DNA from: Eubacteriales bacterium
GTDB taxonomy: Bacteria > Bacillota > Clostridia > Tissierellales > Dethiosulfatibacteraceae
Assembly (NCBI GenBank): GCA_030694905.1
Contig: JAUYTY010000211.1
Span: 3,652 to 67,651, forward strand
Length of the DNA stretch: 64,000 nt
Direction: 5' to 3'
The stretch's first letter is position 1. Every line of letters begins with the position of its first letter. The translations under genes and the position numbers were made by a program. Under the pieces are notes generated by a model, which was given only the letters and a program-made list of their open reading frames with translations, was not told the origin of the DNA and made no database searches. This document shows, in pieces, positions 1-22,078 of the stretch.

Positions 1-816
1 GGCGTCCTTCAAATGTCTTTGGAACCTTTCTTCCAATCCCTCTTCGTTGATGATTCTGACAGATTCTTTCAGCGCCCAGATCAGATTGATGGGTGGCGTT
101 CCATAGTACTTCATCGGGTCATTCATAATCGGAAGCCATTTTTCAAAATCCAGGTATGAATCCGCTATGGTTTTCAGATTTTTTCTTCTTTCGATTGCTT
201 TTGGACCTGCCCAAATAATCGCCAGGCCCGGTGATACGCCAAATGCCTTCTGTGATGCGGTAAACAGTATATCTATCCCCATCTTTTTCAGGCTTTCTTT
301 TTCACCGGCTGTTGAACAGACGCCATCGACGATATATAGCGTGTCTTGAAACTGATTCAGCATCTCACCTATTTTTGCAATATCAGAGCGTGTGCCTGTG
401 GAGGTGTCAACATGTGTGACTGTTATGGCGTGGTAATGCTTTTCCTTTAGCTTTGCTTCAATTTGATCTATAGGAACTGCTTTGCCCCATTCAGATGACA
501 ATACATCTGTGTTGATTCCTCTTCTTTCAAATATATCTATGAATCTGTCTCCAAAATATCCGTGAGACACAACCAAAACATTATCGCCGCTCTTGACTGA
601 ATTGGCAACTGCCACTTCCATGGCCATAGTGCCTGTTCCTGATAGGACAAAGCACTCTTCGGCCTGCCACATATCTTTAAGATCTAGTACCAGCCCTTTG
701 AAATCCTTGACAAAATCAGCATCTTTAAAGGATACTGTCTCTCTTCCCATCTGGACCATGATACTGTTGACAGTAGGTGTCGGACCCGGTATCATGACTA
801 ATTTCTTGTTTTTCAT
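1..816 (-). CDS. Class V PLP aminotransferase (alanine-glyoxylate / serine-pyruvate aminotransferase family); 3' end cut by the window edge
   Basis: Hand translation from ATG (rc of 814..816): MKNKKLVMIPGPTPTVNSIMVQMGRETVSF... It continues without a stop to position 1 and contains the PLP-lysine context TASQKAF. It is absent from the ORF track because it is open-ended. Confidence 0.8.
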   Translation of the reverse strand, partial: MKNKKLVMIPGPTPTVNSIMVQMGRETVSFKDADFVKDFKGLVLDLKDMWQAEECFVLSGTGTMAMEVAVANSVKSGDNVLVVSHGYFGDRFIDIFERRGINTDVLSSEWGKAVPIDQIEAKLKEKHYHAITVTHVDTSTGTRSDIAKIGEMLNQFQDTLYIVDGVCSTAGEKESLKKMGIDILFTASQKAFGVSPGLAIIWAGPKAIERRKNLKTIADSYLDFEKWLPIMNDPMKYYGTPPINLIWALKESVRIINEEGLEERFQRHLKDA

Positions 817-866
817 TTTTTCTCCCTTCATGACGTATTCGCAAATATTCGCTTAAGCTCAGTTTT

Positions 867-906
867 TATCCGATGACCAACAGTGCTAAGACTCCCACTT
901 CTGTTG
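867..906 (-). repeat. Dispersed repeat copy A (core AAGTGGGAGTCTTAGCACTGTT read on the minus strand)
   Basis: The 22-nt core at 879..900 is identical to 43847..43868. The extended roughly 40 nt aligns with 58116..58151 on the opposite strand. Confidence 0.8.
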
Positions 907-1779
907 ATCGTATTCTTCTATGATTTTCAGTAAAGCTTCTTTTTTACCCTGTTCCAATGGAAGCAGTGGTCTTCTTGGAAAACCGCCTTTATAGCCCTTT
1001 TGATCAAGTGCTACCTTCAATCCGGGTATCCCATAGACACCAGTGACCATCTTATTGATCTCTATCATCTTCAGTTGAAGCGCTATCGCTTCCGCCAATT
1101 TGTTTTCTCGGTGCAGTTGCACAAGCTTGCAGCAGTCTTCAGGCAAACAATTTGCCAATGCCAAGGTAGCGCCTTTTGCTCCCAGACACAAGGCGGGTAA
1201 AAGATAGCCTGCATTTCCGACAAATACTGTGAAGTCCTTATCCACATCACGAATCATCTCACCAATGTGAACAATGTCGCCCGATGTATCCTTGATACCA
1301 ATGATATTCTTATTTTTTGATAATCGTGCAATCACTGATGATGTCATACTGATACCTGTGTTTCCAGGCATATTGTAAATCATTAGCGGTACATTGACAT
1401 TGTCGGCAACCTCTGTGAAGTATGTGAACAACACCTCATCATTCATAGCTTTCTTAAAATAGTTCGGTGGTAAAACAAGTACTGCGTCGGCTCCAGCCTG
1501 TGCTGCCTGATTGCTGAATTTGATGGTCTCTCTGGTTGACTCGCAGCTTGTTCCAACGATGATTTTTTTTCTCTTGTCAACTTTTTTTATAACATGGATC
1601 ATCAGCTCTATCTTTTCTTCCTGTGATAGAAATACAAACTCTCCATTTGACCCAAGCACCACCAGACCATCTAAATCGGTTGCAATCCATTTTTCAAGAT
1701 TATAGTCCATACTCTCGTAATCAATATCACCATTTTCTTTAAATGGTGTGATAATAGGTGTGTAGATACCTTTTAACAT
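886..1779 (-). CDS. DapA/DHDPS-NAL family pyruvate-dependent lyase (dihydrodipicolinate synthase-like aldolase)
   Basis: 297 aa. N-terminus GIYTPIITPF...DGLVVLGSNGEF is typical of the DHDPS/N-acetylneuraminate lyase family. It sits 19 nt downstream of the preceding gene. Confidence 0.8.
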   Translation of the reverse strand: MLKGIYTPIITPFKENGDIDYESMDYNLEKWIATDLDGLVVLGSNGEFVFLSQEEKIELMIHVIKKVDKRKKIIVGTSCESTRETIKFSNQAAQAGADAVLVLPPNYFKKAMNDEVLFTYFTEVADNVNVPLMIYNMPGNTGISMTSSVIARLSKNKNIIGIKDTSGDIVHIGEMIRDVDKDFTVFVGNAGYLLPALCLGAKGATLALANCLPEDCCKLVQLHRENKLAEAIALQLKMIEINKMVTGVYGIPGLKVALDQKGYKGGFPRRPLLPLEQGKKEALLKIIEEYDQQKWES

Positions 1780-1797
1780 GCAGTCCCTCCTTCATGA

Positions 1798-2988
1798 TTA
1801 TTTGATTTCTTTAAAAATTTTATCCATTCTATTTGCGGCTTCCTCTATTTTATCGTATGAATTTGAATAAGACAAGCGAATGCTGTCCGGTGACTCGAAT
1901 GCATCACCTGGAACTGTTGCCACAAGACCTTCTTCCAACAAAAGATTGGCCAGATCCATGGAGTCTTTTATGGTTTTTCCATTATAGGACTTCTGATAAA
2001 GCTTCGAGACATTGGGCAACAAATAAAACGCGCCTTCAGAGTTGATGCATGATACCCCGTTCATTTGATTTAACCGCCCCAACAGAAGATTTCTTCTCTT
2101 TTCAAATTCATCTCTCATGATATCAAGACTTTCTTGAGGACCTTCCAGCGCCTCTATGGCCGCCTTTTGAGTGATTGAATTCGCCGCATGGGTCATATGC
2201 CCCTGAATGGCGCTCATCGCTTTGATGATTTTTTCCGGGCCCGCCGCGTATCCAATTCGCCATCCCGTCATCGCATAGGCTTTGGAGAATCCATTTATTG
2301 TAATGGTTCTTTGATAGATATCGTCCGACAGGGAAGCAATCGATACATGCACAGCATCGTCATAAACCAATTTCTCATAAATCTCATCTGAAAAAATCAG
2401 AAAATCATTTTCAACCGCCAACCGTCCAAGCGCCTCCAGGGATTCTCTGCTGTAGACTGCTCCTGTGGGATTATTGGGCGTGTTAAGCATTATGCCTTTT
2501 GTCCTAGGACTCAAGGCTTTCTTAATATTGTCGATGTTTAGCTGATAACCATCTCTTTCATCGGTTTTAACGAAAACAGGAACTGCTCCAGATAATCTGA
2601 TGATTTCCTCGTAGCTTACCCAGCAAGGTGTCGGTAGAATTATTTCGTCACCTTCATTGCAAACTGTTAGCACAGCATTGTTCAAGCATTGCTTTGCTCC
2701 TGTTGAGACGATGATATTTTCCGGCCAATATTCAATCCCATTGTCATCTTTAAGTTTTTTGCATATGGATTGTCTCAACTCCAAAATGCCGTTTACCGTG
2801 ACGTATTTGGTAAACCCTTCATTGATGGCCTGTATAGCTGCTTCACATATGTTTCTCGGGGTTTCAAAATCAGGCTCGCCGACATTCAGGTCAATGACAT
2901 CTTTTCCTGATTTTTTCATTTTTGCCACTTTTGCTGTAAGCTCCACAGTGGCGGATGGCTTCATGTTTGCGGATCTTTGACTTAGCAT
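1798..2988 (-). CDS. Class I/II aminotransferase, aspartate-aminotransferase-like (paralog of 32086..33276)
   Basis: 396 aa with NVGEPDF, NTPNNPTGAVY and SKAYAMTGWRIGY motifs. The start overlaps the AOR stop (ATGCTAA). Confidence 0.85.
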   Translation of the reverse strand: MLSQRSANMKPSATVELTAKVAKMKKSGKDVIDLNVGEPDFETPRNICEAAIQAINEGFTKYVTVNGILELRQSICKKLKDDNGIEYWPENIIVSTGAKQCLNNAVLTVCNEGDEIILPTPCWVSYEEIIRLSGAVPVFVKTDERDGYQLNIDNIKKALSPRTKGIMLNTPNNPTGAVYSRESLEALGRLAVENDFLIFSDEIYEKLVYDDAVHVSIASLSDDIYQRTITINGFSKAYAMTGWRIGYAAGPEKIIKAMSAIQGHMTHAANSITQKAAIEALEGPQESLDIMRDEFEKRRNLLLGRLNQMNGVSCINSEGAFYLLPNVSKLYQKSYNGKTIKDSMDLANLLLEEGLVATVPGDAFESPDSIRLSYSNSYDKIEEAANRMDKIFKEIK

Positions 2989-5162
2989 AGATGTTTATTG
3001 ACGACTTCCAATACTTCCGGATAGTCTATTCCAAGTCTTTGAAGTGTTTCAGGCATTGGAACCGCGTTATTGGTCCAGCCTCGTCTATTGTACACCGCAT
3101 CCAAAAGCATCTCGTATTGGTTTTCTCTGTGTTTTCTTAGGATTCCCATTTTTTCTTCTATGGTTTTTCCCTTTATATCAAACCCAAGTTCCTTTAGCTG
3201 TTTGTCGTATCTTTCCATTCTTGATCTGTACTCAACTATCGTCACAGGTCCCACAGATCGATAAGGTATGGCATCATCTCTTCTAAGGCCTTTGCCCATT
3301 TTCAGATTGAAAACCTTCTGAAGGTTGTACACCCTCTCAGATTGAAGAACCAACTCGCTGACATGTTGCACATTTGCTCCAGTGACGCCATTGTATAGAT
3401 TGATATAGTTCTCTATATGCTCAGGTACCTTTGCCGGTTCATCGGTTTCCGCATTGTTGGCAGGTTCTATGTCATTCCAGGGCAGCTTGCACAGACCTAC
3501 CAGACTGAACCATGTCCTGAATAGAGGATAGAAATATAGCGCTTCCGCCTTATCCTCAAATGTCGGAATCTGGTTGTTTACCATATCCATGAATATCAGC
3601 CAGTTTTCATCATGCTGAGCCCCTTTGTTGGCTGTTCCATATCCGGCCTGTTGTGCGAGTGATTCCTTTGTGACGTACTCCGAATATTCCAATCCTTTGC
3701 ATTCCATTCCAATATCATTGAGATAATCGGCATCGATGCCGTATTGATCGACAAAAATCTCTTTCAGTTTCTTGACGCCCAATCCCGCCACTGTTCCAAA
3801 GCCTTCTCCTCTTGACATCTGATGAAGCAATTCAAGCTGTGCGGTCCAATTGCCAAAGTGAAGCTCAAGTCCTCCTGTAATGGCAACATCTATCAGATTT
3901 TCCTCAAAGCATTCCATAAGGAAGGCACAGGTGGTTCCAAACGAAATGGTATCAATGCCGTAGGTATCGCAGTAGAAATTGCATTCAAGAACCGCATGGG
4001 GATCATAAATACCGCAGTTGGTTCCAACACCGGCAGCCGTCTCATACTCCGGACCATCTATCAATACCTTGTGCCCTTTGTATGGACCTGTTTTTAGCTC
4101 GACATTGCTAACGCTTTTAGAGCATTGCATAGTACAGCCGTACCAGCATCCATCTGGAATTCCCTGTGTAAAGGTTTCCTGCCAATACTGTTGCCTCATT
4201 TTATAGGCATCCGGATGATAGCCATATCTGAAATTGTTAACCGGAACCAGATCATAATCATTCATCGCTTCCACAAGTCTTGTGGTTCCATTCAGCCTCA
4301 TGTTGGCCTGGCTGCCGTCGTTATCATGTAATTCTCTGTGAAGCCTTATGCCCGTTCTGGCTACCTTGTCATAATCGGCAACGTTGTTCATGTCTCCAGT
4401 CATACCGGGTTTTCTGACAACAACAGCCTTGATATTTTTATCCACAAAAACTGTCCCTATGCCACCTCTGCCTGCCTGCTTTAGTTTTGTGTGTTTTCTG
4501 TGTATATCGTAATATGAGAAGTTCAATATGCCAAAATTTGTATTGCCCGCCGCACTGCCTGCCGATATGATTGAAACATTCTTCTTATCATCTTCACTGA
4601 TTGAAAAAACATCCGTCAACACCTCTGCTAAAATATGACTGTCCTCGCAATCCCCCAAGTATTTTTCAAAGCTGATCATCCCATTTTCACCATCTATGAA
4701 GATGACAAGCTGAGTCTCTGATTTACCCTGTATTTCCAATGCATCAAATCCACATAGCTTGAAAAGGGGTCCAAAGTGACCGCCTACATTGCTGTCAATG
4801 GGAATATCTGTCAATGGCGATATGGTTGCCACATATGTTTTGCCTGATCCCGGATACTGCGTAATTCCGCCTATGGGTCCCTGGGCAATGACTATTTCGT
4901 TCTCTGGACTGTTCCATTTGGTGTCACTGTTTACAGCGTCCCAGAGCAGCTTCATGCCATATCCCCTACCGCCGGTGAACTTCTCTCGCATGTCAGAACT
5001 GACGGTTTTTATTTCAGCTTTTTTCTCACCGATATTAATGTATAATGTGCGATCGGCATAGCCTTTATCGATTTTTTTGGACTCAAATGGCGATTGTGCG
5101 ATCTGTTCTCTTTTATAGTCTTTTATTTGTGTCTCCAGTATTTCTTTATACTTGCAATCCAT
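2982..5162 (-). CDS. Aldehyde:ferredoxin oxidoreductase family protein (tungsten/molybdenum pterin enzyme), long form of about 726 aa
   Basis: AOR N-domain (FTGGRGYGMKLLWD), Cys cluster GCWYGCTMQCSK and YGIDTISFG motif. Start moved to the ATG at 5162, which follows CAGGAGGAAAAC; the track start at 5183 overlaps the ferredoxin gene. Confidence 0.85.
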   Translation of the reverse strand: MDCKYKEILETQIKDYKREQIAQSPFESKKIDKGYADRTLYINIGEKKAEIKTVSSDMREKFTGGRGYGMKLLWDAVNSDTKWNSPENEIVIAQGPIGGITQYPGSGKTYVATISPLTDIPIDSNVGGHFGPLFKLCGFDALEIQGKSETQLVIFIDGENGMISFEKYLGDCEDSHILAEVLTDVFSISEDDKKNVSIISAGSAAGNTNFGILNFSYYDIHRKHTKLKQAGRGGIGTVFVDKNIKAVVVRKPGMTGDMNNVADYDKVARTGIRLHRELHDNDGSQANMRLNGTTRLVEAMNDYDLVPVNNFRYGYHPDAYKMRQQYWQETFTQGIPDGCWYGCTMQCSKSVSNVELKTGPYKGHKVLIDGPEYETAAGVGTNCGIYDPHAVLECNFYCDTYGIDTISFGTTCAFLMECFEENLIDVAITGGLELHFGNWTAQLELLHQMSRGEGFGTVAGLGVKKLKEIFVDQYGIDADYLNDIGMECKGLEYSEYVTKESLAQQAGYGTANKGAQHDENWLIFMDMVNNQIPTFEDKAEALYFYPLFRTWFSLVGLCKLPWNDIEPANNAETDEPAKVPEHIENYINLYNGVTGANVQHVSELVLQSERVYNLQKVFNLKMGKGLRRDDAIPYRSVGPVTIVEYRSRMERYDKQLKELGFDIKGKTIEEKMGILRKHRENQYEMLLDAVYNRRGWTNNAVPMPETLQRLGIDYPEVLEVVNKHLC

Positions 5163-5175
5163 GTTTTCCTCCTGT

Positions 5176-5565
5176 CTACTCAAGATTTTCTATAAATATC
5201 GCGCTGGTCGGACAAACTGCGGCGCATTTTCCACAGGCAATGCATTTGCTTGGTTTTCTCTCACCTGTGAAGTAATGGATGGACAATGTGTCGCAAAAGC
5301 CAACGCAGGCATAACATTCTACGCATTTTTTTCTATTCAATGTTATGACGCCGTTTTTCGATATTGTCAAGGCTTGTGTGGGACATATGGTTGTACAATA
5401 ACCACATTGATTGCATACGTTAATATCGAATTTATCATTAGTGCTTTCTGTTATTCTGATAACCGATTTGTCTCCTGTTTCATCCTTGTAATAGGTTGTC
5501 GCGCATTCTACCATGCATTTTTTACAACCGATACAAAGCGCTTCATTCTTACTTAATACTTTCAT
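5176..5565 (-). CDS. Poly-[4Fe-4S] ferredoxin (four Cys-cluster motifs)
   Basis: 129 aa with CIGCKKCMVEC, CNQCGYCTTICP, CVECYACVGFC and CIACGKCAAVCP. It lies immediately upstream of the AOR gene. Confidence 0.85.
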   Translation of the reverse strand: MKVLSKNEALCIGCKKCMVECATTYYKDETGDKSVIRITESTNDKFDINVCNQCGYCTTICPTQALTISKNGVITLNRKKCVECYACVGFCDTLSIHYFTGERKPSKCIACGKCAAVCPTSAIFIENLE

Positions 5566-5598
5566 ATTCGAATCTCCTCGTAAATTGTCTTTTTTAAA

Positions 5599-6591: not shown

Positions 6592-6605
6592 CGGCCTCCC
6601 TTTAA

Positions 6606-7310
6606 TTATATTTTTCTTTTCAGTCCTCTTTTTTCATAATAGGCATCGGGAATATCTTTAGGATCCTTGTACAATGTCATCACGCATTTGCCGTCACTTC
6701 CCACTCCGGGCACATCCATGATGAAAAGGGGCCATCCAAACCACTCATACCATCCGAATTCCCACATTGTCGTGCAATTCAGGCAGTAGCACTGGAATCC
6801 TTTTTTATCATAACACCAGGTATGTGCCTCATCCGTTACCGCTACCGGGTCAGGCTGCTCTTTCACAAGATAGCCGCCGCTGTTGCATTTATCAAGGATG
6901 AAGGTGATCTTTTCATCGTCCTCTTCCCAGATTTGCTCATTGTCGTGAACCATCTGCCACAGGTTTGCCCTATTTTCCAAAAATCCTTCCAGCGGAAAAT
7001 CCTTGTAGGTTGCTTTTCCTGCGTCATAGGCACTGATCCAATCCTTAATGACAGGCGGATAAAATGTGGTCGCATATTCCTTCATGCATTCGAATATGGC
7101 TTCATCTGATGCGTTTTTCTTAAAGTGCGACAGTGTCAGATTAACCCATCTGACTGCAAAGTCGTGAAAATTTTGCTTGCCCGTCACATTCTTGCGATGT
7201 AGTTCGAGTGCTTTCTCCATATCACCCGCTTTGATAGCCGCTTCTAATTCATCAATGGTTCTTTTTGCATTGACATTGACAATCTGTTCCATTATAGGTG
7301 TTCGTTTCAT
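6606..7310 (-). CDS. Hypothetical protein with a Cys/Trp-rich C-terminal half; no family recognised
   Basis: Start set to MKRTPIMEQ (ATG rc of 7308..7310), preceded by GGAGGGAATACT. C-terminus: KCNSGG...WCYDKKGFQCYCLNCTTMWEFGWYEWFGWP...GKC. Confidence 0.6.
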   Translation of the reverse strand: MKRTPIMEQIVNVNAKRTIDELEAAIKAGDMEKALELHRKNVTGKQNFHDFAVRWVNLTLSHFKKNASDEAIFECMKEYATTFYPPVIKDWISAYDAGKATYKDFPLEGFLENRANLWQMVHDNEQIWEEDDEKITFILDKCNSGGYLVKEQPDPVAVTDEAHTWCYDKKGFQCYCLNCTTMWEFGWYEWFGWPLFIMDVPGVGSDGKCVMTLYKDPKDIPDAYYEKRGLKRKI

Positions 7311-7326
7311 AGTATTCCCTCCGTAT

Positions 7327-8403
7327 TTATGATAAGCTTTTTTTATATGTTTTCCCGTCGTCTTCAACAGGGAATTGCACTTTTTTTCCTGTCATGCCTG
7401 AGATATAAATCGCCCTAATAAACTCAAGGGCTCTTCTGCCTTCGTGTCCGTCAATTTTTGGTTTTCTGTTGTTCTGGATTGCCTCAATGAAATCCTCAAT
7501 CTGCAGCTTATGCAGCTCGTAATTGACATAACCGGCCTTAGTGGCGGTATCTCCCGAATCGATTATCTCTTTTGTCAAATAATCATCCTCGTTCATTCCC
7601 TCGATTTTCCATTGGATTATCTTTTCCTCTTCCAGAATGATGGTTCCTTTTTCGCCATGTATCTCCAGTCTTCTAGGATATCCGGGCTTAATGGCTGTAG
7701 AGCTTACCACACTGCCGATAGCACCGTTCTTAAACTTGAAGATCGCATTAGCCATATCATCCACTTCAATATCATCGTGTATTGTGGTCATGTAGTCGCC
7801 GGACAGGCTTTCCACATCACCAGCAATAAACAGCATCAGATCTATAAAATGCACCGTTTGGCTGATCAGTGACCCGCCACCCTCGCCGGACCATGTACCC
7901 CGCCATTTTCCTGAGGCGTAGTACTCATCGCTTCTAAAGCTCTTCCCGATACAATCCACTGATAGAAGTCGACCTATTTTTCCGGAATCAATAGCGTCTT
8001 TAATGGTTAAAGCCTGTTTCATAAATCTATACATGAATATGACGCCAAGTGTAATCCCTTCTTTTTCACAAACGGCAATCATATTATCCGCTTCGATGAG
8101 ATTTGTTGCGATGGGTTTTTCGCAGATAATGTGCTTTTTCGACTTTGCAATATCCTTGACCATCTGTTCATGAAGGAAAGGTGGTGTGATGACGCACACG
8201 ACGTCAATGTCATCATTTTTCAACATTTCTTTATAGTCTGTGTAGACATACGGAATCTGGTATTCTTTTTTATATTGTTGGCATACGGCTTCATTCACAT
8301 CGCAGAATGCTATAATCTCTGCATTGTCTATGCTCTTTATTGCATTTGCACTCAAGGGGCCTGCCATTCCCCCGCCTATTAATGCAAATCTAGTTTTACC
8401 CAT
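7327..8403 (-). CDS. Gfo/Idh/MocA family NAD(P)-dependent oxidoreductase
   Basis: 358 aa with an N-terminal Rossmann motif (RFALIGGGMAG) and the EKP motif (ICEKPIA). Confidence 0.85.
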   Translation of the reverse strand: MGKTRFALIGGGMAGPLSANAIKSIDNAEIIAFCDVNEAVCQQYKKEYQIPYVYTDYKEMLKNDDIDVVCVITPPFLHEQMVKDIAKSKKHIICEKPIATNLIEADNMIAVCEKEGITLGVIFMYRFMKQALTIKDAIDSGKIGRLLSVDCIGKSFRSDEYYASGKWRGTWSGEGGGSLISQTVHFIDLMLFIAGDVESLSGDYMTTIHDDIEVDDMANAIFKFKNGAIGSVVSSTAIKPGYPRRLEIHGEKGTIILEEEKIIQWKIEGMNEDDYLTKEIIDSGDTATKAGYVNYELHKLQIEDFIEAIQNNRKPKIDGHEGRRALEFIRAIYISGMTGKKVQFPVEDDGKTYKKSLS

Positions 8404-8434
8404 TTTTATCTCCCTTCAGATTTAATATTGCAAA

Positions 8435-10027: not shown

Positions 10028-10051
10028 ACCAATTCCCTTGTATTAAGCTGT

Positions 10052-11347: not shown

Positions 11348-11470
11348 TCTATTCCAGTCCTTCCTTATTGTAATCGTGCTAAAATCAAAATCATATCTGC
11401 GCATCATTTATCAAACCTGTCCTGCGACAGTTCTTGGAACTTTTAATCCGTTCTCATTTCTGTTATTAAC

Positions 11471-11522: not shown

Positions 11523-11563
11523 AATCAACAGGGTTTATCGTTTAATTAACTAAAAAAAACTTA

Positions 11564-13261: not shown

Positions 13262-13315
13262 AAATTTTCTCCTCTTAATTATTTTTTTTATGATCAAATG
13301 TTGTTTTTTCAACAT

Positions 13316-14293: not shown

Positions 14294-15302
14294 GTCTACC
14301 CGGTCTTGTGACTGCAGGTGCATTTTCGTGTTTTAGCCAGCAGGCGCTCTTGTGAATGCCCCCACAATCAAATAAAGGAGGCTGCTGCTTATAGCAAATT
14401 TTCATGGCATATTCACATCTTGCCGCAAAGCCGCAACCAACCGGTGGTTTAAACAGATCCGGAGGTGTACCTGTGATGGCTTTCAAATCGGTTTTGTTGG
14501 TGTCTGTCAATTTGGGAATCGAGTTCAGCAATCCCCAAGTATAAGGATGTCCGGATTCATAAAAAATCTCATTTACTGTCCCAATCTCAACAATTTTCCC
14601 TGCATACATGACTGCTATGCGATTGGCCATATCCACCACTACGCCAAGGTCATGGGTGATCAATACGATTGAGGTGTTAAGCTTGTTCTTTAAGTCTCTA
14701 AGCAGATCAAGAATCTGTGCCTGAATGGTCACGTCCAACGCTGTGGTCGGTTCGTCGGCTATCAGCAATTTCGGGTTGCAGGACAAGGCTATGGCGATGC
14801 ATACCCTTTGCCGCATCCCGCCACTGAACTCGTGAGGGTACTGCTTCATCCTTCCCGATGCATTCGGTATGCCGCAGAGCTCCAAAATATCCACAGCTTT
14901 CTTATATGCCTCTGACCTGCTGACACTGGTATGTTTTACGATGCTCTCAATAATCTGATTGCCGATTTGCATGGTGGGATTCAAGGATGTCATAGGATCC
15001 TGCAATATGACTGCGATTTCTGAGCCTCTTATATTTTCCATTTGCCTTTGTGTGAAATCGATCAGATTCTTGTCTTCGTATATTATTTTACCGCCTTTGT
15101 AGACTGCTGGTGGAGAGGGCAGCAATTTGACTGTGGAGAGAAAGGATACACTCTTGCCGCAGCCTGACTCACCGACGATCGCGAGAACCTCGCCCTTGTA
15201 CAATTCAATGCTGATGTCCCGTACCGCTTCTATCTCGCCTTCATAGGTTGCAAAGGATATGGATAAATTTTGTATAGATAGTATAGTTTCTTTATTATTC
15301 AT
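14271..15302 (-). CDS. Peptide ABC transporter ATP-binding protein (OppD/DppD-like)
   Basis: Walker A GESGCGKS, signature SGGMRQR and Walker [13 protein letters not shown]. Confidence 0.85.
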
Positions 15303-15310
15303 CGATATAC

Positions 15311-16258
15311 CTACTTTCTTAATTTAGGGTCTAAGGCATCTCTCAATCCATCACCAAACAATTGCAGCGCTAGCATCATGGTGCTGATGAAGAATGCCGG
15401 TATCAATAGCTGATAAGGGTGTACCTGCATGACTTGTCCTCCTGCATTTGCCAACTGCCCCCAGCTGGTCATCGGTGGCTTGACTCCCAAGCCTATGTAG
15501 CTCAGAAAAGCCTCTGTGAATATAGCCTGCGGTATTCTCATGGTCAATGTAACGATTATGACTCCTGACATATTAGGAATAAGATGCTTTAGGATCAGCC
15601 TTGATGAACTCGCTCCCATTGCTTTTGCGGCAGTCATAAAATCCTGCTCCTTCAACTGAAGAACCTGACCCCTGACCAGCCTTGCCATTCCAAGCCATCC
15701 GGTAATTGCAAATGTGATAATGATAGGAAAGAGTCCCGATCCGATTACCATCATAATCAATATGACAAATATTAAAAAGGGTATGCCGCTTAATATATCA
15801 ACAATTCTCATTATGACCAAATCCAGGTTTCCTCCGAAATAACCCGCTACGCCTCCGATCAGAATTCCCAAAAATGTTTGAACGAGGGCTGCTACCAAAC
15901 CTATAAAAAGTGAAATCCTCGCACCTACCCACACTCTTGCCCATAAATCTCTACCTAACACATCTGTTCCGAACCAGTGCTGGGCATTTGGCCTGATATT
16001 GGTCTCCATCAGATAATTTGTCCGATAGCTGAAAGATGTCATCCATGGACCGATGATTGCCATTATCGTATAAATAATGATGATACATAGACCTATCATT
16101 GCAAGCTTGTTTTTTCTCAATCTCCTCCAGGCATCCTTCCAATAACCTACACTAGGTCTGTTGACAACCTCACTGACATACTCGTCTTTACCTAAAACGC
16201 CAAATTCCTCTAACGGAATATCCACCAAACCTAAAACGTCACTCATGATATCACTCAT
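15311..16258 (-). CDS. Peptide ABC transporter permease (OppC/DppC-like)
   Basis: 315 aa multi-pass membrane protein with the N-terminal OppC-type extension and an EAA-loop region. Confidence 0.8.
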   Translation of the reverse strand: MSDIMSDVLGLVDIPLEEFGVLGKDEYVSEVVNRPSVGYWKDAWRRLRKNKLAMIGLCIIIIYTIMAIIGPWMTSFSYRTNYLMETNIRPNAQHWFGTDVLGRDLWARVWVGARISLFIGLVAALVQTFLGILIGGVAGYFGGNLDLVIMRIVDILSGIPFLIFVILIMMVIGSGLFPIIITFAITGWLGMARLVRGQVLQLKEQDFMTAAKAMGASSSRLILKHLIPNMSGVIIVTLTMRIPQAIFTEAFLSYIGLGVKPPMTSWGQLANAGGQVMQVHPYQLLIPAFFISTMMLALQLFGDGLRDALDPKLRK

Positions 16259-16275
16259 GTTTTTTCACCTCAAAA

Positions 16276-17199
16276 TCAATTTTTTTTGTCTACTCTTATT
16301 CTAGGGTCTATGAAGCCATATAGAATATCTACTAAGAATTGGCTAAAAACCAGGAAGGTGCCATAAACTATGGTCAACCCTGAAATCATGGGATAATCCA
16401 AGTTCTGTATCCCCATAACATAGTGCTTGCCCATGCCAGGGATTGCGAATATGTTTTCAATAACAAATGTCCCTGTCAATAAGCTTGCAACAGTCATTCC
16501 TAAAATTGTAACAATCGGCAATATGGCATTCCGGATCTGATGTTTCCATGTGATTTGAAACTGGCTTAATCCTTTTGCCTTGGCATTTTTAATATAATCC
16601 ATTCCCACAACATCCAGCATGCTTGTTCTCATCAATCTGGCCAATACAGCCAGTGTCCCTAAAGACAGGGCAAAGGTGGGCAGAATCGTATGCATGAAGG
16701 ATCTATATTGCGCTACCGGAAATAGTCCAAGTTTAAAAGACAAGAAGTACTGAAGCAGGCTGGCCATGATAAAGCTGGGAACTGAAACCCCTACAATGGC
16801 AATAAGCATTGTCAGACCATCCCATTTTTTATCCTTGTTTAGAGCAGAGGTGATCCCCAGAAATAATCCAGCAAAAGCTGCTGTGAAGAGTGCCCTTAGA
16901 CCTAAATCCAACGAATAAGGAAACGAGTCTGCAATTATTCTGTTAACAGTCCTGCCTTTAAAACGCAAAGAGTATCCCAGATCGCCTTGCATCAAATTTT
17001 TCATATAGAGTCCATACTGCTCCAGCACCGGTCTATCTAATCCGTAATAGGACAGCATCCTCAATCTGATCTCATCGGGAACCAACGGATCACTAAAGGG
17101 ATCCCCAGGCAATAAGCGGACCAAAACAAAGACAATCGTTATGAGTACCAATATTGTTACAACTGATATGAAGAATCTTTTTACTATATATTTACCCAT
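16276..17199 (-). CDS. Peptide ABC transporter permease (OppB/DppB-like)
   Basis: MGKYIVKRFF... is the typical OppB N-terminus. Start set to the ATG 8 nt after GGAG. Confidence 0.8.
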   Translation of the reverse strand: MGKYIVKRFFISVVTILVLITIVFVLVRLLPGDPFSDPLVPDEIRLRMLSYYGLDRPVLEQYGLYMKNLMQGDLGYSLRFKGRTVNRIIADSFPYSLDLGLRALFTAAFAGLFLGITSALNKDKKWDGLTMLIAIVGVSVPSFIMASLLQYFLSFKLGLFPVAQYRSFMHTILPTFALSLGTLAVLARLMRTSMLDVVGMDYIKNAKAKGLSQFQITWKHQIRNAILPIVTILGMTVASLLTGTFVIENIFAIPGMGKHYVMGIQNLDYPMISGLTIVYGTFLVFSQFLVDILYGFIDPRIRVDKKN

Positions 17200-17225
17200 G
17201 TTCACATCTCCTGAAATTCAACGTA

Positions 17226-18536
17226 TTATTTGATCAGATAAAATTCTGTTTGCCTGCCACCTATAAAATATGTCTTATCATCTACAAATGCAATTTGCTC
17301 TTCCAATGCCAGAATGACCTCTTGATCCCATTCGGGCACGTAGTATCTGTTGTTCAGCTCCAACGCGTAGCATGTGTTGTTATAAATCGGATAATCCCCT
17401 TTACCGTCAATCCACTCCTGATTGTCCCAGAGTCCTATAGTCGGCCCCGCGCCATGGTCCTCAAGGCCTATGGGATGGGCATAAATGCTAGGCTTAAGCC
17501 CTTCTTCAATGGCTCTCTTCCTGGCTCTTTGAAGGACTTCGTTGCCTGTGACCCCTTCCTTGAATTCCTCACATACAATATCCTGAAGTCTGTTGGCTGC
17601 CTTCATTGCATCCTTAAGACCCTCGGGTGCATCAGTCTCGCCGTTTCTTAAAATATAGGCGTTTTGCTGTATGTCGGTGAATAGTCCCAGATACTGCATG
17701 CCACAATCGCATCTGACCAAATCTCCAGGCAGGATCACAGTGTTCTTTAAAGGCTCTGTGTTCTGACCTTCTTTAGGTTTCCATTCAGAATCGACAAAGC
17801 AACCGCCTGACGGAGAAAAATATCCCTTTCTCTGTACTTTTATATACCCTATTCCAAAATAGACGGAATAATCCCTGAACCATTTCAAAATATCAACGTC
17901 TTTTGTGACGCCTGGGTGGAGAACTCTTTCGGAAAAACCCTCGGCTATTATGCCCTTGGTCATTGACGATATGCCTTCATAGATAGCAAGCTCCCGCTCT
18001 ATTCTCTTCTCCATGTAGCCAACTACCAATTTGCCAGCGCTTGTAATCCTTTCTGATAACTCTGGACCGAGTGCAGCCACCGTTTTCTTGTAGAGGGAAT
18101 GGCTGATGCCATCACCAAATGAAAAGTGATCCGAATAATTCAACCCAATTACCTTTGGATTGATTTCCTTGACGATTTTGCTCAGGCATTGCCATTGGTC
18201 CTCTCCGCTTTCAGCATTCCACAGCATTTCATAATGGCCCTCAATTTCGATTTCATATCTGCATATGCAGCCAGTCCAAAGCTTTTCATCTCTGATCCCT
18301 ATCAGCAAAATACTTGTTCTTCTGGCTAGCTTATTGCCTGTCAGAGATTCCCATACAGGATCATTGTTGCATTCATTGGCTGGTATGATCCACAGATCTA
18401 TTACTTCTCTCTTAAGCAAGTCCAATAATAAACCATCCAATCTGTCCTTAACGATGCTTCTTGTTATCATATCCTGTTGCGCTTTTCCCAAAATCTTCTT
18501 GTTCCAGTCATAAACCGTTGTGTATTTGCCTTCCAT
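17226..18536 (-). CDS. M24 family metallopeptidase (creatinase/prolidase fold), paralog A
   Basis: 436 aa. C-terminal pita-bread motifs (LVRCDCG..., HPIGLEDHGAGP). Similar along its length to 19970..21220. Confidence 0.7.
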   Translation of the reverse strand: MEGKYTTVYDWNKKILGKAQQDMITRSIVKDRLDGLLLDLLKREVIDLWIIPANECNNDPVWESLTGNKLARRTSILLIGIRDEKLWTGCICRYEIEIEGHYEMLWNAESGEDQWQCLSKIVKEINPKVIGLNYSDHFSFGDGISHSLYKKTVAALGPELSERITSAGKLVVGYMEKRIERELAIYEGISSMTKGIIAEGFSERVLHPGVTKDVDILKWFRDYSVYFGIGYIKVQRKGYFSPSGGCFVDSEWKPKEGQNTEPLKNTVILPGDLVRCDCGMQYLGLFTDIQQNAYILRNGETDAPEGLKDAMKAANRLQDIVCEEFKEGVTGNEVLQRARKRAIEEGLKPSIYAHPIGLEDHGAGPTIGLWDNQEWIDGKGDYPIYNNTCYALELNNRYYVPEWDQEVILALEEQIAFVDDKTYFIGGRQTEFYLIK

Positions 18537-18560
18537 TTCGCATTCTCCTTTTTTATTTGC

Positions 18561-19958
18561 CTATTTGGCCAATTCGTAGATAGCCTTAGCGTATATTTTG
18601 GTTGCTTTTATGATGCTGTCGATGTTGACATACTCATCGGCATCATGTGCCACCTGCCTCTCTCCTGGAAACAATGGACCAAACGCCACCGCATTGCTAA
18701 GTGTTCTGGCATAGGTGCCTCCCGTCATGGTAACCGGCTCTGCGGTTATGTCGCCTGTTTCTTCTTTATAGACGCTCATAAGTTTCTTTACCAAAAAGCT
18801 GTCCTTATCAATATAATGTGCCTTGGAATGATTGCTGATTCGTATTGAAGCATCATGGTCACTGAAATTTTCTCTTATCTTATCTATTATGTTGGTGTGG
18901 CAAACTGTTATCGGATATCTGATATGTACTTTCATCTCCAATGTGTTGTTCTCATAATTGATGATTCCCGGATTGAATGTCAGTGGTGTTGATATGGAAT
19001 CAGTAAAATCGCACCCTAGTCTTTCACCGCTGTAATCCTCGCCTATCTTTTTATTGTACTCGTCAATAAATATCTTAAGCTCCTCTTCCAATCCATCAAT
19101 GCCGCCTAAAACGGACAGCATTCCGGCAATTGCATTCTTTCCATCTTGAGGGTTTGTCGCATACGCTTCCTTGCCCACTATCTCGATCTTCAGCAATCCT
19201 TCTTTCTTGTCAAAGGAGTAGGATGAACTGAATGCGCTATCCAGATTTTTCATTTCGTTCAGTATAGCCTCTTTGATGTGATCATTGACAGAAAGTACCG
19301 CTTCGCACTGGTGAGCAACTTTTTTGACTAAAGTGCCTCCCTTAATGCTTTTTAGGATATCGCTTCCCAGCGGAGCGCTGATTGTTTTTTCAAATGACAG
19401 CTCAAGAATTCCTTTCTCTCCATAGACAACCGGGAATGGCGCATCGGGAGAAAAAGCCACGTCCGGTTCTTTTTCTTTAGTCAGGTAGTATGGAATGTCT
19501 TTCATACCCGTTTCTTCGTTGGCCCCGAATATTATCCTGACCTTCTTGTTTGTTTTAAGTCCGGATTCTTTAAGTGCCTTCAATGCGTAAAGAGAACCAA
19601 TGCAAGCTCCTTTGTCATCGTATGAACCCCTTCCGTATATCTTACCGTCCACGATTTCGCCTGAATAGGGCGGATAGGTCCAGCCACTGCCTTCGGGGAC
19701 GACATCCACATGTACGAGTACGCCGACGATCTCATCGCCATTGCCATATTCGACATGTCCTGCGTAGCCATCGAAATTTTTTGATTCAAAGCCCAAGCTT
19801 TTAGCTAGTTCCAACACATATTCCAGCGCTCTGTACGGACCCTCTCCAAATGGCTTTCCCGTTTTGGGCTCCTCTTGAACGCTTTTGATCTGAACCAGCT
19901 TTTGGATATGGCGTATTATCTCATTCTTATCATTATCAATTGATTGCTTAAAAACCAT
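18561..19958 (-). CDS. pepV: M20 dipeptidase, PepV-like
   Basis: 465 aa. VLVHVDVVPEG...WTYPPY...GKIYGRGSYDDKG is characteristic of PepV/Sapep-type dipeptidases. Confidence 0.75.
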   Translation of the reverse strand: MVFKQSIDNDKNEIIRHIQKLVQIKSVQEEPKTGKPFGEGPYRALEYVLELAKSLGFESKNFDGYAGHVEYGNGDEIVGVLVHVDVVPEGSGWTYPPYSGEIVDGKIYGRGSYDDKGACIGSLYALKALKESGLKTNKKVRIIFGANEETGMKDIPYYLTKEKEPDVAFSPDAPFPVVYGEKGILELSFEKTISAPLGSDILKSIKGGTLVKKVAHQCEAVLSVNDHIKEAILNEMKNLDSAFSSSYSFDKKEGLLKIEIVGKEAYATNPQDGKNAIAGMLSVLGGIDGLEEELKIFIDEYNKKIGEDYSGERLGCDFTDSISTPLTFNPGIINYENNTLEMKVHIRYPITVCHTNIIDKIRENFSDHDASIRISNHSKAHYIDKDSFLVKKLMSVYKEETGDITAEPVTMTGGTYARTLSNAVAFGPLFPGERQVAHDADEYVNIDSIIKATKIYAKAIYELAK

Positions 19959-19969
19959 ATTATACTCCT

Positions 19970-21220
19970 TTATCTGATAACTATGATCTCCGTTTGCCTG
20001 CCATCGAGAAAATCAACCCTGCCTTGAGTGAATGCGACTGTCTGCTCCAGAAACATATAGACATCTTGTTGGTCCCATTCCGGAACTTTTCTGGAGATGT
20101 TTAGCTCCAATGCATAGCATGTGTCTGCATATAGCTTGTAATGGCCTCTTTCAGGCAGTATGTCCTGCTGGTCCCACATGCCGATGATAGTCCCGGCACC
20201 ATGACCGTGAAACCCTATGGGGTGTGTGTATAATCTGGCGTCGATGTTTTCCGATTTCGCTTGTTCTATGGAAGCGGTAAATATCTCATTTCCGGATCTG
20301 CCTTCCCTGAAATTTTCACAGACTATATCCTGAAATCTGTTGCCTGTTTTCATGGCTTCCTGGATTCCCTCTGGTATTTTGTCCTCACCCGGCTTCAGCA
20401 CATAGGCCATTCTTTGGGTGTCAGTCTTCAACCCCAGATAATCCAGCCCCACATCACATCTCAGCAGATCGCCAGGTTCTATGACAGCCTTATTGAGTCT
20501 ATTGTTGGGCTCTCCTTGTCTCTGAAGATCGACATCGAATGGAAACCATGGCCTCAGGCCCAACGATTTGACCTTTTCCATCATCCACCATTCCACATCG
20601 GTTGTGGTCGTAATGCCTGGTTTAACAATCTTACCCGAAAAAGCTTCCTCGATAATGCTGTGAATGATATGGTTTATCTCGGGATAGATTTCAAGTTCTT
20701 TTTGTGATCTTTTTTCCAGCCATCCAATTGCCAGATCCTGAGCACTGACAATTTTTTCTTTGATATCATCCTCAATGCTGTTGAACAGCTCTTCATGCAG
20801 ATATTGGGTCAGTCCATCAGCAAGGGCAATGTTTTTAGAAGTGTTGATTCCAATTCTTTTTGGATTTCTTTCTTTTATGATGCGGTTGATGCATTCCCAT
20901 TGCGTTTCATTTGCCTTGTCCCACATAGGCTGATAATAGGGCGTAAAAGCTGAGCTGATAGAAGGAAATAAACTAAGACAATCCACTTCTTTGTCATCCT
21001 TTAAAATAAATAGGATTCCCGTCAGTCTTGATGCGTTCATGGCTGGTGCCGGGAAAAGACTTTCCATGACAGGATCCTCATTGTATTCCCTGCCAAGTAT
21101 GATCCACATATCGATTTCGGTCTTTTGCATCAATTCGGGCAATATGTGTTTAAGTCTGTGCTGTAACCAATCATTCTTCATGTCTGCTTGTTTTGAAAGT
21201 GGCAGTATTTTATTCTTCAT
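19970..21220 (-). CDS. M24 family metallopeptidase (creatinase/prolidase fold), paralog B
   Basis: 416 aa with LLRCDVGLDYLGLKTD and HPIGFHGHGAG motifs. Confidence 0.7.
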   Translation of the reverse strand: MKNKILPLSKQADMKNDWLQHRLKHILPELMQKTEIDMWIILGREYNEDPVMESLFPAPAMNASRLTGILFILKDDKEVDCLSLFPSISSAFTPYYQPMWDKANETQWECINRIIKERNPKRIGINTSKNIALADGLTQYLHEELFNSIEDDIKEKIVSAQDLAIGWLEKRSQKELEIYPEINHIIHSIIEEAFSGKIVKPGITTTTDVEWWMMEKVKSLGLRPWFPFDVDLQRQGEPNNRLNKAVIEPGDLLRCDVGLDYLGLKTDTQRMAYVLKPGEDKIPEGIQEAMKTGNRFQDIVCENFREGRSGNEIFTASIEQAKSENIDARLYTHPIGFHGHGAGTIIGMWDQQDILPERGHYKLYADTCYALELNISRKVPEWDQQDVYMFLEQTVAFTQGRVDFLDGRQTEIIVIR

Positions 21221-21242
21221 GGCATCATCGACTCACCTTTCA

Positions 21243-21264
21243 TTATTATATTGTAATTATATTA
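21243..21264. promoter_or_regulatory. AT-rich 22-nt motif copy 1 (TTATTATATTGTAATTATATTA), upstream of the peptidase/transporter operon
   Basis: Near-identical to 22057..22078, which lies upstream of the GntR gene. Candidate shared promoter or GntR operator. Confidence 0.35.
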
Positions 21265-21399
21265 TTGATATATCACATAATGGCATAAATGCTGTTGATT
21301 ATTTTCTCACGACTTGATCTTATTATTGTGTCGAAGTGCATGAGTTTATATCTGTTTGTTTTATTTTTAACAAGTTAATGCATAAAAAATTATCTTATA

Positions 21400-22023
21400 T
21401 CAGATTTGAACCTTCAGGAATTTGTCTCTAAATGTCTCCACATGATGTCTCAACAATTCTGAAGTGGTTTGTTCGTCCTGATCCTGTATCGCTTCATATA
21501 TTTTTTCATATTCTTCAGTTATATGATCATCGATGCTATTGATTTCTTCTCTGTTTAAAAAGAGCAACCTTATGCTTAAATCCAGCGTTCGGTTCATTGT
21601 TTCTTCCAAAAATCTGTTCTTCGTCATTTTTGATACTGCTAAGTGAAACTCTCTGTCCATCATTATTCTTTCTTCGTCATGTTCTTCATTTTTGATTCGA
21701 TTGATGATGTCAGACAGTTGATTCAGCTCATTAATTGTCCTTCTTTTGGATGCCAGTTCACCTTCAAGTGTTGATAACGAGTATCTGATTTGAAATATCG
21801 ATTCCATGTCCTTGATCGACAGTTCGCTAACCATGATACATTGTCTAGGTATGATCCTTACTTGTCCTTCCCATGACAGTTTGATAAGCGCTTCCCTAAT
21901 AGGCGTTCTGCCAATATTCAGCTTTTTCATCAGATCGTTGTCAAATATAACCTCTCCCGGTTTTAGCTCGGTTCTAATTATCATCTGTTTTATTTGTTTA
22001 TAGACAATCTCGCTATTTTTCAA
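21400..22023 (-). CDS. GntR family transcriptional regulator (FadR/FCD-type C-terminal domain)
   Basis: 207 aa with an N-terminal wHTH (GRTPIREALIKL). TTG start 5 nt after GGAGAA. Confidence 0.8.
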   Translation of the reverse strand: MKNSEIVYKQIKQMIIRTELKPGEVIFDNDLMKKLNIGRTPIREALIKLSWEGQVRIIPRQCIMVSELSIKDMESIFQIRYSLSTLEGELASKRRTINELNQLSDIINRIKNEEHDEERIMMDREFHLAVSKMTKNRFLEETMNRTLDLSIRLLFLNREEINSIDDHITEEYEKIYEAIQDQDEQTTSELLRHHVETFRDKFLKVQI

Positions 22024-22056
22024 GGTTATTCTCCTAAAACTTTTATAGTTATACTG

Positions 22057-22078
22057 TTATTATATTTGTAATATATTA
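22057..22078. promoter_or_regulatory. AT-rich 22-nt motif copy 2 (TTATTATATTTGTAATATATTA), upstream of the GntR gene
   Basis: See 21243..21264. Confidence 0.35.

Follow-up and report, generated by a model that had tools for sequence, protein, structure and literature searches.

Collagen and plant cell walls supply hydroxyproline, a major nutrient in the gut and in sediments, and to our knowledge the known anaerobic routes for its catabolism all depend on glycyl radical enzymes (HypD with ProC; HplG; HpyG or HpzG). In mammalian mitochondria 4-hydroxyproline is catabolized by PRODH2, ALDH4A1, GOT2, HOGA1 and AGXT, and the bacterial aerobic pathway consists of a 2-epimerase, a D-hydroxyproline dehydrogenase, a deaminase of the dihydrodipicolinate synthase (DHDPS) family and an alpha-ketoglutarate semialdehyde dehydrogenase. 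The locus analysed here, headed by a gene for a GntR/FCD regulator, lies within a 64,000-nucleotide stretch of contig JAUYTY010000211.1 from a Eubacteriales bacterium of the Dethiosulfatibacteraceae (hereafter, the window). Analysis of its genes suggests, with a probability that we put at roughly 0.5, a GntR/FCD-controlled operon for dedicated peptide import and conversion of a hydroxyproline-type amino acid to pyruvate and glycine.

As in the mammalian route, genes for enzymes resembling aspartate aminotransferase, HOGA1 and AGXT are consecutive, stand in pathway order and are preceded by a gene for an aldehyde-oxidizing enzyme. Unlike that route, the locus has no flavin-dependent hydroxyproline oxidase, for which a core of three proteins (a dehydrogenase, an uncharacterized protein and a Cgl0159-like barrel) would stand in; it has an aldehyde:ferredoxin oxidoreductase (AOR) and a ferredoxin in place of the NAD-dependent pyrroline-5-carboxylate (P5C) dehydrogenase; and its host is a strict-anaerobe-type Firmicute metagenome-assembled genome. 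With the glycyl radical routes it would share substrate class and habitat, and in Lachnospiraceae the core lies beside an HpyG-like enzyme, an activase and a P5C reductase; however, positions 1-36000 of the window contain no glycyl radical enzyme and no activase of the HypD/HpyG type, which were found only in the Lachnospiraceae relatives, and the proposed route is oxidative to pyruvate and glycine rather than reductive to proline. The bacterial aerobic pathway also has a DHDPS-family enzyme and an aldehyde-oxidizing step, but the locus lacks the epimerase and the flavoprotein dehydrogenase, its DHDPS-family member is of HOGA1 type, and aminotransferases are present. Inositol catabolism, with IolG and a Cgl0159-type IolJ analogue followed by semialdehyde oxidation, resembles the locus in both protein families and in the subsequent oxidation of a carboxy-aldehyde, but the locus has no IolB, IolC, IolD, IolE or kinase, its barrel is 38% identical to the iol-type member, the uncharacterized protein is added, and the context is one of peptides and proline. 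As in AorAB and YdhV/YdhY, a four-cluster ferredoxin gene precedes the AOR gene, but the AOR of the window is a long form of 726 residues that is distant from characterized AORs (E = 1e-52 to 9g7j/1aor).

Predicted lower-pathway enzymes and their order

From gntR (21400-22023) to a gene cut at position 1, all 19 consecutive open reading frames are on the minus strand, as described in a first-pass annotation that took the region for one regulated catabolic locus with a dedicated pathway, not generic peptide uptake, and incomplete at position 1; each of these points is supported, also by a related locus that carries nearly the whole enzyme set (see below). Its family assignments were likewise all reproduced in a per-protein check with Pfam and NCBIfam models, which were used to annotate positions 1-36000. 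The genes assigned to the lower half of the pathway are as follows, in order of transcription.

5176..5565, minus strand: ferredoxin of 129 residues with four CxxCxxCxxxC motifs ([4Fe-4S] type), from Pfam and direct reading of the sequence
2982..5162, minus strand: aldehyde:ferredoxin oxidoreductase family enzyme, long form, 726 residues (Pfam AFOR_N and AFOR_C)
1798..2988, minus strand: class-I aminotransferase, aspartate-aminotransferase-like (best NCBIfam model aspartate aminotransferase, 428 bits, below the cut-off of 550)
886..1779, minus strand: DHDPS-family aldolase of the HOGA1 (4-hydroxy-2-oxoglutarate aldolase) type, from its PDB match and signature residues
1..831, minus strand: class-V aminotransferase of the serine-pyruvate/alanine-glyoxylate type, cut by the window edge (best PDB matches of AGXT type)

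The DHDPS-family protein, previously taken to be a DapA-like lyase, is by its sequence of HOGA1 type and is predicted to cleave 4-hydroxy-2-oxoglutarate to pyruvate and glyoxylate. Among PDB entries it matches human HOGA1 best (218 bits, E = 1e-63, versus 154 bits for the best DHDPS), with 39% identity over 282 columns and a single gap. The catalytic residues of HOGA1 are Lys196, Tyr168, Ser77 and Tyr140, with Tyr168 and Ser77 forming the proton relay; Asn78 and Ser198, which correspond to Thr45 and Ala163 of Escherichia coli DHDPS, are unique to HOGA1; and Asn78 and the hydroxyl residue at position 198, where the S198T variant keeps its kcat, bind the distal carboxylate and the 4-hydroxyl of 4-hydroxy-2-oxoglutarate (PMC3188589). 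Alignment to 3s5n places the K of GIKD, the Y of MIYNMP and the S of GSNGE in the catalytic columns, and Tyr140 is kept too; the HOGA1-specific Asn is also kept (GSNGE), and position 198 is Thr (K-D-T) in the window protein and Ser in the orthologue from the related locus L022, which has SNGE and K-E-S. Identity as DapA was rejected: the motif is Ser-Asn instead of Thr44-Thr45, HOGA1 scores 64 bits above any DHDPS, and the NCBIfam dapA score is borderline (206.4 versus a cut-off of 206.15). Other sources already name close relatives 4-hydroxy-2-oxoglutarate aldolase.

The long AOR matches both domains of its family (Pfam E-values 5.7e-46 and 2.6e-93). The gene order ferredoxin, AOR, aspartate-aminotransferase-like enzyme, HOGA1-type aldolase, AGXT-like enzyme is the pathway order of the lower mammalian hydroxyproline route, and we therefore read it as a sequence that would lead from 4-hydroxyglutamate semialdehyde to glycine. 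Homology underlies the enzyme identities in this lower half, and the reactions are predicted from them.

A conserved core and its distribution

Upstream of the ferredoxin gene are three genes that recur together in other genomes.

7327..8403, minus strand: Gfo/Idh/MocA NAD-dependent dehydrogenase (Pfam PF01408, PF22725 and PF02894)
6606..7310, minus strand: uncharacterized protein of 234 residues with four invariant cysteines, identical to NCBI MDP3388170.1
5599..6588, minus strand: Cgl0159-like (beta/alpha)8 barrel of the class-I aldolase superfamily (Pfam PF22649, 189 bits)

The dehydrogenase has an N-terminal Rossmann domain and the C-terminal domain of its family but reaches no equivalog cut-off (IolG, 150 bits versus 355), and its nearest solved relatives are sugar 3-dehydrogenases (3q2k, glucuronide-3-dehydrogenase 8tdi and DgpA) and inositol dehydrogenases. 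The four-cysteine protein has no Pfam or NCBIfam match, and none in Pfam even at E = 5 across 24 members; it falls into just 29 clusters among 5.8 billion proteins. Its invariant residues are C142, C176, C179 and C209 together with H49, H122, D123 and N124, and its AlphaFold model (predicted local distance difference test score, pLDDT, of 89) has no Foldseek match in the PDB at E <= 0.001. A profile search of 1.84 billion representatives recovered a thin superfamily of 377 proteins at E <= 0.001, with 4 at E <= 1e-30; ten distant members contain no confident Pfam domain, with sub-threshold TPR matches in one, and the nearest distant relative is on a contig of only 1.7 kb. For the barrel the sole PDB relative is 3fok (E = 2e-38); K158, invariant across 25 family members, would be the Schiff-base lysine, and several arginines are also invariant across both subfamilies. 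Identical NCBI entries, all from one metagenome-assembled genome and within MDP3388165-MDP3388170, exist for the four-cysteine protein, the barrel, the AOR and the DHDPS-family protein.

A distant Cgl0159-like protein (38% identity) occurs in another locus (L029, 8111-18581) between a PfkB (IolC-like) protein and a thiamine pyrophosphate enzyme (IolD-like), with KduI/IolB-like, Gfo/Idh/MocA and AP_endonuc_2 genes close by. The arrangement is that of a classical inositol cluster, and the Cgl0159-like protein would be its IolJ analogue. Identity of the window barrel as a DKGP aldolase of this IolJ-analogue type was rejected, as neither the window nor the core loci contain IolB, IolC, IolD, IolE or a kinase, and the identity to the iol-context member is 38%.

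A scan of one genome per species across 185,579 species found the four-cysteine protein in 14, belonging to the Lachnospiraceae (including Otoolea muris DSM 111138 and Clostridium fessum), Halanaerobiales and Saccharofermentanales, and a separate metagenome scan added 50 further loci; clustering at 90% identity yielded 17 lineages. The Gfo/Idh/MocA gene adjoins that of the four-cysteine protein in all 17, and the Cgl0159-like gene adjoins in 14, the three exceptions being contigs shorter than 5 kb. Most lineages also have a GntR/FCD regulator, and homologues of the window GntR protein (31-54% identity) adjoin the core in most related loci. Five lineages have an AOR as partner of the core and seven a P5C reductase, whereas none has both. 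The importer is either an Opp-type ATP-binding cassette (ABC) system or a tripartite ATP-independent periplasmic (TRAP) system, and the hydrolases differ among core loci (M24, M20, M29, D-aminoacylase family, hydantoinase A/B), with the M20b and M24b types of the window recurring. The conserved unit, which the first-pass annotation did not single out, is a small core of GntR regulator, Gfo/Idh/MocA dehydrogenase, four-cysteine protein and Cgl0159-like barrel, with which an importer and an AOR module are associated interchangeably (TRAP for Opp, ProC for AOR).

The enzyme set of the window was found nearly entire on an independent contig, L022, whose four-cysteine protein is 74% identical. L022 has the DHDPS-like protein, both aminotransferases, the D-aminoacylase-like and M20b hydrolases, the Gfo/Idh/MocA dehydrogenase, the four-cysteine and Cgl0159-like proteins, the ferredoxin, an AOR (64% identical), a ThiS-like protein, GntR and Opp, in a rearranged gene order. 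Retention of this set despite rearrangement is strong evidence that the enzymes of the window form one functional unit. The barrel, ferredoxin and AOR also travel as a submodule without the dehydrogenase or the four-cysteine protein in L027, where positions 5556-13729 encode a PucR regulator, an NicX-like protein, a DUF819 membrane protein, a PepV-like dipeptidase, an uncharacterized 216-residue protein, a Cgl0159-like barrel, a ferredoxin and a long AOR (61% identical); the 216-residue protein was compared with the four-cysteine protein and is unrelated to it. In both L022 and L027 the ferredoxin gene is kept in front of the long AOR gene, downstream of the Cgl0159-like gene. An unrelated short AOR (28% identity) is encoded downstream of the Cgl0159-like gene in L025 and similar marine-sediment loci. 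Wherever an AOR is the partner, its gene directly follows the Cgl0159-like gene, and this is seen in four independent contexts with two unrelated AOR types; a ThiS/MoaD-like gene follows the AOR gene in L022 and L025. What has been observed comprises the genes and their arrangement as an operon, their assignment to families and subfamilies, and the conservation of the modules in other genomes.

The neighbours of the core in other lineages have a proline flavour. In loci from Lachnospiraceae and the human gut (L007-L011, L015, L031-L046) it adjoins genes for an AraC regulator, an HpyG-like glycyl radical enzyme, a YbaK-like protein and an activase, which in L009 (4446-8460) lie directly beside a unit of Gfo/Idh/MocA, four-cysteine protein, TRAP, Cgl0159-like, GntR and ProC genes. 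The glycyl radical enzyme scores 1206 bits to 8id1 and is just 66% identical to the L009 type in loci of the C. fessum type; HpyG is an N-methyl-hydroxyproline dehydratase (PMC13450708). In marine-sediment loci (L025 at 2080-3751, and also L066, L069 and L070), genes for two-subunit AcnX, whose only NCBIfam match is cis-3-hydroxy-L-proline dehydratase, and a DUF169 gene are upstream of the core, and an alanine-dehydrogenase-like gene follows the short AOR gene in loci of the L025 type. Other core loci encode M24 enzymes resembling Xaa-Pro dipeptidase or aminopeptidase, and P5C reductases at or near equivalog scores.

Less regular neighbours were also recorded. Directly downstream of the core and ProC in L028 (12532-17541) is a complete urease operon, with a GrdB-family gene upstream; a link to urea-releasing chemistry may exist, or the arrangement is perhaps a coincidence. 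Hydantoinase/oxoprolinase A and B and an M24 protein similar to Xaa-Pro dipeptidase adjoin the core in loci of the Saccharofermentanales type (L002, 12898-17801; L005, 18454-20720), and a gene of the creatininase family lies close to the radical enzyme gene in L007.

Importer, hydrolases and control elements

The upstream part of the locus encodes the regulator, an importer and the hydrolases, and contains the candidate control elements.

22057..22090: nearly perfect palindrome of 34 bp immediately upstream of gntR, a putative operator (17-nt arms, 94% complementary)
21400..22023, minus strand: GntR/FCD transcriptional regulator at the head of the locus (Pfam GntR and FCD)
21237..21276: element of 40 nt in front of the first peptidase gene, with a copy upstream of gntR at 22040-22079 (direct repeat, 78% identity)
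19970..21220, minus strand: M24 metallopeptidase, paralogue a (Pfam Peptidase_M24)
18561..19958, minus strand: PepV-type M20 dipeptidase (NCBIfam PepV, 506 bits versus a cut-off of 435)
17226..18536, minus strand: M24 metallopeptidase, paralogue b (Pfam Peptidase_M24)
13316..17205, minus strand: permeases and ATPases of a peptide-type ABC importer, OppB (16276-17205), OppC (15311-16258), OppD (14271-15302) and OppF (13316-14323) (Pfam and NCBIfam)
11564..13261, minus strand: family-5 solute-binding lipoprotein of the importer (Pfam SBP_bac_5, 280 bits; start set from the 565-residue gene call in L001)
about 11470-11521, minus strand: stable RNA hairpin with a 17-bp stem, 3' of the binding-protein gene
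10052..11407, minus strand: M20 deacylase/peptidase of the ArgE/DapE type, M20b (Pfam, NCBIfam)
8435..10027, minus strand: D-aminoacylase-family amidohydrolase (Pfam Amidohydro_3)

PepV is the sole protein of the operon clearly above an NCBIfam cut-off, and a homologue (40% identical) adjoins the Cgl0159-ferredoxin-AOR genes of L027. The two M24 paralogues are 39% identical to each other; paralogue a has no NCBIfam match and no PDB sequence match, and homologues of paralogue b (about 50% identity) adjoin the core in L013, L023 and L053-L055. The importer has every component that characterizes the Opp/Dpp type: besides the family-5 binding protein there are two permeases and two ATPases, the latter with a C-terminal oligo_HPY domain. 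Its binding protein is only 23-28% identical to those of related loci. M20b is found with the core in L013, L018, L022, L023, L028 and L053/54. The amidohydrolase belongs by sequence to the N-acyl-D-amino-acid deacylase (D-aminoacylase) family, with putative D-stereospecificity, and matches D-aminoacylase 1m7j (E = 2e-54), N-acyl-D-glutamate deacylase (8e-52) and the sugar-acid de-N-acetylase OngB (3.5e-50) in the PDB; members of the family are encoded with the core in L017, L018 and L022. In L022 (3194-4764) the gene is split into four small called genes, by frameshifts (a pseudogene) or by assembly errors.

Adjacent genes of the locus overlap or are separated by 8-54 nt, except at two larger gaps: 156 nt after the binding-protein gene (11408-11563), which had been recorded together with its hairpin, and 179 nt between gntR and the first M24 peptidase gene (21221-21399), which had gone unmentioned. 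The hairpin is as real as was first described but longer, with 17 bp in place of a 13/14-bp stem; the whole 156-nt gap folds at -51 kcal/mol (z = -6.2 versus shuffled sequences), and no T-tract is present at the hairpin. Hairpins that raise the relative level of a binding protein are common after binding-protein genes, and for this reason we regard the hairpin as probably a transcript-stabilizing or processing element of this kind. Between positions 1 and 20000 no terminator-like site was found in the intergenic regions of the minus strand. The half-site pattern of the palindrome upstream of gntR occurs at a single place in the 64-kb window, and the palindrome together with the repeated 40-nt element suggests that gntR is autoregulated and that gntR and the structural genes are under common control. 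An Rfam scan of the operon leader detected no riboswitch.

Beyond gntR lies a separate unit, trpB (22194-23369, minus strand), a lone tryptophan synthase beta gene outside the locus with its own T-box leader (23446-23683, minus strand; Rfam RF00230, 119.6 bits) and its own terminator of hairpin and T-run (22144-22184). Divergent from trpB is a gene (23834-25591, plus strand) for a RACo-type reductive activator of corrinoid enzymes with 2Fe-2S and ASKHA domains; no corrinoid methyltransferase was seen in the annotated part of the window. A second GntR/FCD regulator (26218-26859, minus strand) is divergent from genes at 27021-30365 (plus strand) that encode a paralogue of the class-I aminotransferase of the operon, followed by DAHP synthase and prephenate dehydrogenase. 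A thiamine pyrophosphate riboswitch (RF00059, 64.4 bits; 51817-51924, minus strand) is upstream of minus-strand genes near 50-51 kb.

The proposed route, its alternatives and its meaning

In the proposed pathway, the Opp-type ABC importer with its family-5 binding protein would take up a peptide or an acylated conjugate, from which the two M24 peptidases, PepV, the M20 deacylase and the D-aminoacylase-family amidohydrolase would free the amino acid. The core would then activate it: oxidation of a secondary alcohol by the dehydrogenase with NAD+ (in the simplest case, of 4-hydroxyproline to 4-oxoproline) would be followed by conversion of the ketone to a product with both an aldehyde and a cyclic-imine form, 4-oxoproline as an alpha-amino ketone giving its alpha-hydroxy-imine tautomer, 3-hydroxy-P5C. 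Ring opening would bring 3-hydroxy-P5C into equilibrium with 4-hydroxyglutamate semialdehyde, and the AOR would pull this equilibrium by oxidizing the semialdehyde to 4-hydroxyglutamate with the four-cluster ferredoxin; transamination to 4-hydroxy-2-oxoglutarate by the aspartate-aminotransferase-like enzyme, cleavage to pyruvate and glyoxylate by the HOGA1-like aldolase and transamination of glyoxylate to glycine by the AGXT-like enzyme would complete the route. The presence of AOR or ProC with the core, but never of both, fits a product of this dual nature, aldehyde as well as cyclic imine, of the glutamate-semialdehyde/P5C type, and the HOGA and AGXT genes of the window point to a 4-hydroxylated version of such a product. 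In ProC lineages, 3-hydroxy-P5C would be reduced to an isomer of hydroxyproline, possibly a C4 epimerization that feeds cis-specific radical enzymes. The particular chemistry of 4-oxoproline and 3-hydroxy-P5C is put forward tentatively. Equally tentative is the wider notion that the core trio activates hydroxyproline with neither oxygen nor a radical enzyme, by NAD+ and then a reverse intramolecular Amadori shift, which with AOR would permit strict anaerobes full oxidation of the mammalian type and with P5C reductase would make a C4 epimerase that channels the abundant trans isomers to the cis-specific HpyG and HplG. We infer the identity of the substrate, all the reactions ascribed to the core and the way in which flux runs. 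Of the substrate candidates first suggested, peptides rich in proline and hydroxyproline have gained indirect support, from the HOGA1-like gene between those of the aspartate-aminotransferase-like and AGXT-like enzymes and from P5C reductase, Xaa-Pro peptidases, HpyG-like enzymes and AcnX near the core elsewhere.

Several observations weigh against the hydroxyproline pathway. The closest structures to the dehydrogenase, as judged by sequence, act on sugars and uronic acids; the one contextual precedent for the Cgl0159 family is, by analogy with IolJ, a retro-aldol cleavage of a phosphorylated keto-sugar acid; 4-oxoproline lacks the beta-hydroxyl that such a cleavage needs, and one would not expect a Schiff-base barrel to catalyse the proposed isomerization. 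P5C reductase would merely reduce the product back to an isomer of hydroxyproline, to no clear purpose, and the role of the amidohydrolase from a putatively D-specific family is unexplained. The divergence of the binding proteins implies that the imported form may differ between lineages. Enzyme roles have been assigned from sequence, with clear equivalog-level support for PepV alone, and the full-text literature searched, which did not include the primary HpyG paper, describes neither a function for the Cgl0159 family nor a hydroxyproline route linked to an AOR nor the set of genes found here.

The difficulties with the core chemistry (the sugar-like dehydrogenase, the IolJ precedent and the unexpected catalyst) are the reason for retaining an alternative in which the core enzymes perform canonical chemistry on a larger polyhydroxylated amino or sugar acid, such as a 3-deoxy-ulosonic acid like 3-deoxy-D-manno-octulosonate or its 2-amino analogue. 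The dehydrogenase would make a ketone beside a terminal CH2OH, the Cgl0159-like barrel would release a C3 ketone and 4-hydroxyglutamate semialdehyde (or 4-hydroxy-2-oxoglutarate semialdehyde) by retro-aldol cleavage, and AOR, HOGA and AGXT would finish the pathway. The relationship of the dehydrogenase to sugar/uronate 3-dehydrogenases and inositol dehydrogenases, the distant Cgl0159-like protein at the position of the IolJ aldolase in an inositol cluster and the invariance of K158 and several arginines across both Cgl0159 subfamilies all agree with such chemistry, as do the sialic-acid binders among the best PDB relatives of the TRAP binding protein, the similarity of the amidohydrolase to OngB and the Cgl0159-ferredoxin-AOR genes of L027, which lack the dehydrogenase and the four-cysteine protein. 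Yet none of roughly 60 loci has a kinase, glycoside hydrolase or sugar transporter, and a pure sugar acid would leave the P5C reductase, Xaa-Pro peptidases, Opp, the HpyG-like and AcnX neighbours and the two aminotransferases unexplained. We know of no natural amino acid with the structure required, and consider this alternative unlikely, though not negligible.

An anaerobic copy of the bacterial aerobic-type route would have the core produce a 2-imino acid, the DHDPS-family protein act as pyrroline-4-hydroxy-2-carboxylate deaminase and the AOR oxidize alpha-ketoglutarate semialdehyde to 2-oxoglutarate. The deaminase of the LhpC/LhpG pathway is indeed a DHDPS-family enzyme with an aldehyde as its product, and both AOR and DHDPS-family genes are in the locus; but the protein in question is closest to HOGA1 in particular, with Asn78 retained and a hydroxyl residue at position 198, the AOR gene stands before the aldolase gene and not after it, no hydroxyproline 2-epimerase is encoded in the locus, and the aspartate-aminotransferase-like and AGXT-like enzymes are left without a role, all of which makes this version improbable.

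Alternatively, the locus could be a mosaic of a general oligopeptide uptake and peptidase operon and unrelated co-directional redox and aminotransferase genes that form no single pathway. The peptidase and transporter sets do change between loci, the binding proteins are poorly conserved, and between the importer half and the enzyme half there is a strong hairpin. Such a mosaic is distinctly improbable, however, given that L022 keeps the hydrolases, core, AOR, aldolase and both aminotransferases despite rearrangement, that M20b and M24b hydrolases recur beside the core in several lineages, and that the enzyme half has neither a terminator nor a promoter-sized gap.

Degradation or recycling of peptidoglycan stem peptides or other D-amino-acid peptides, the second substrate class suggested at first, would account for the D-aminoacylase-family amidohydrolase, the DapE/ArgE-like M20 enzymes and the DHDPS-family gene, but is highly improbable: the lyase is HOGA1-type and not DapA-like in its signature residues, the neighbourhoods are proline-flavoured, and no murein-specific gene (LD-carboxypeptidase, amidase, DapF, Mpl or MurNAc genes) was seen in the locus or its relatives. 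The diaminopimelate candidate is not supported. Degradation of ectoine or hydroxyectoine by DoeA-like M24 and DoeB2-like M20 enzymes, an aminotransferase and semialdehyde oxidation was rejected because the M24 proteins of the window miss the DoeA models, the DoeB2-like score is far below cut-off, and such a pathway would leave HOGA and AGXT without an explanation. Weak PhnW and PhnR matches prompted a phosphonate interpretation, which fails on scores far below cut-offs and the absence of C-P enzymes.

The individual families are already known, and the operon belongs among amino-acid catabolic operons; the combination of families, the presence of a HOGA1-type aldolase in the operon of a strict anaerobe, the role of the AOR and the family of the four-cysteine protein appear to be undescribed so far, and there is a moderate chance that the locus contains new enzymology. 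The proposed hydroxyproline pathway points to an oxidative, ferredoxin-yielding alternative to the glycyl radical routes that would give pyruvate and glycine, both good Stickland substrates, and, if true, would provide a physiological function for a subfamily of AORs so far without one. Three families, namely a fold without known relatives, a subfamily of Cgl0159 barrels and a divergent clade of M24 proteins, become testable on a short list of substrates, and such experiments are feasible because O. muris DSM 111138 and C. fessum, two gut isolates in culture, carry the core in its ProC variant.

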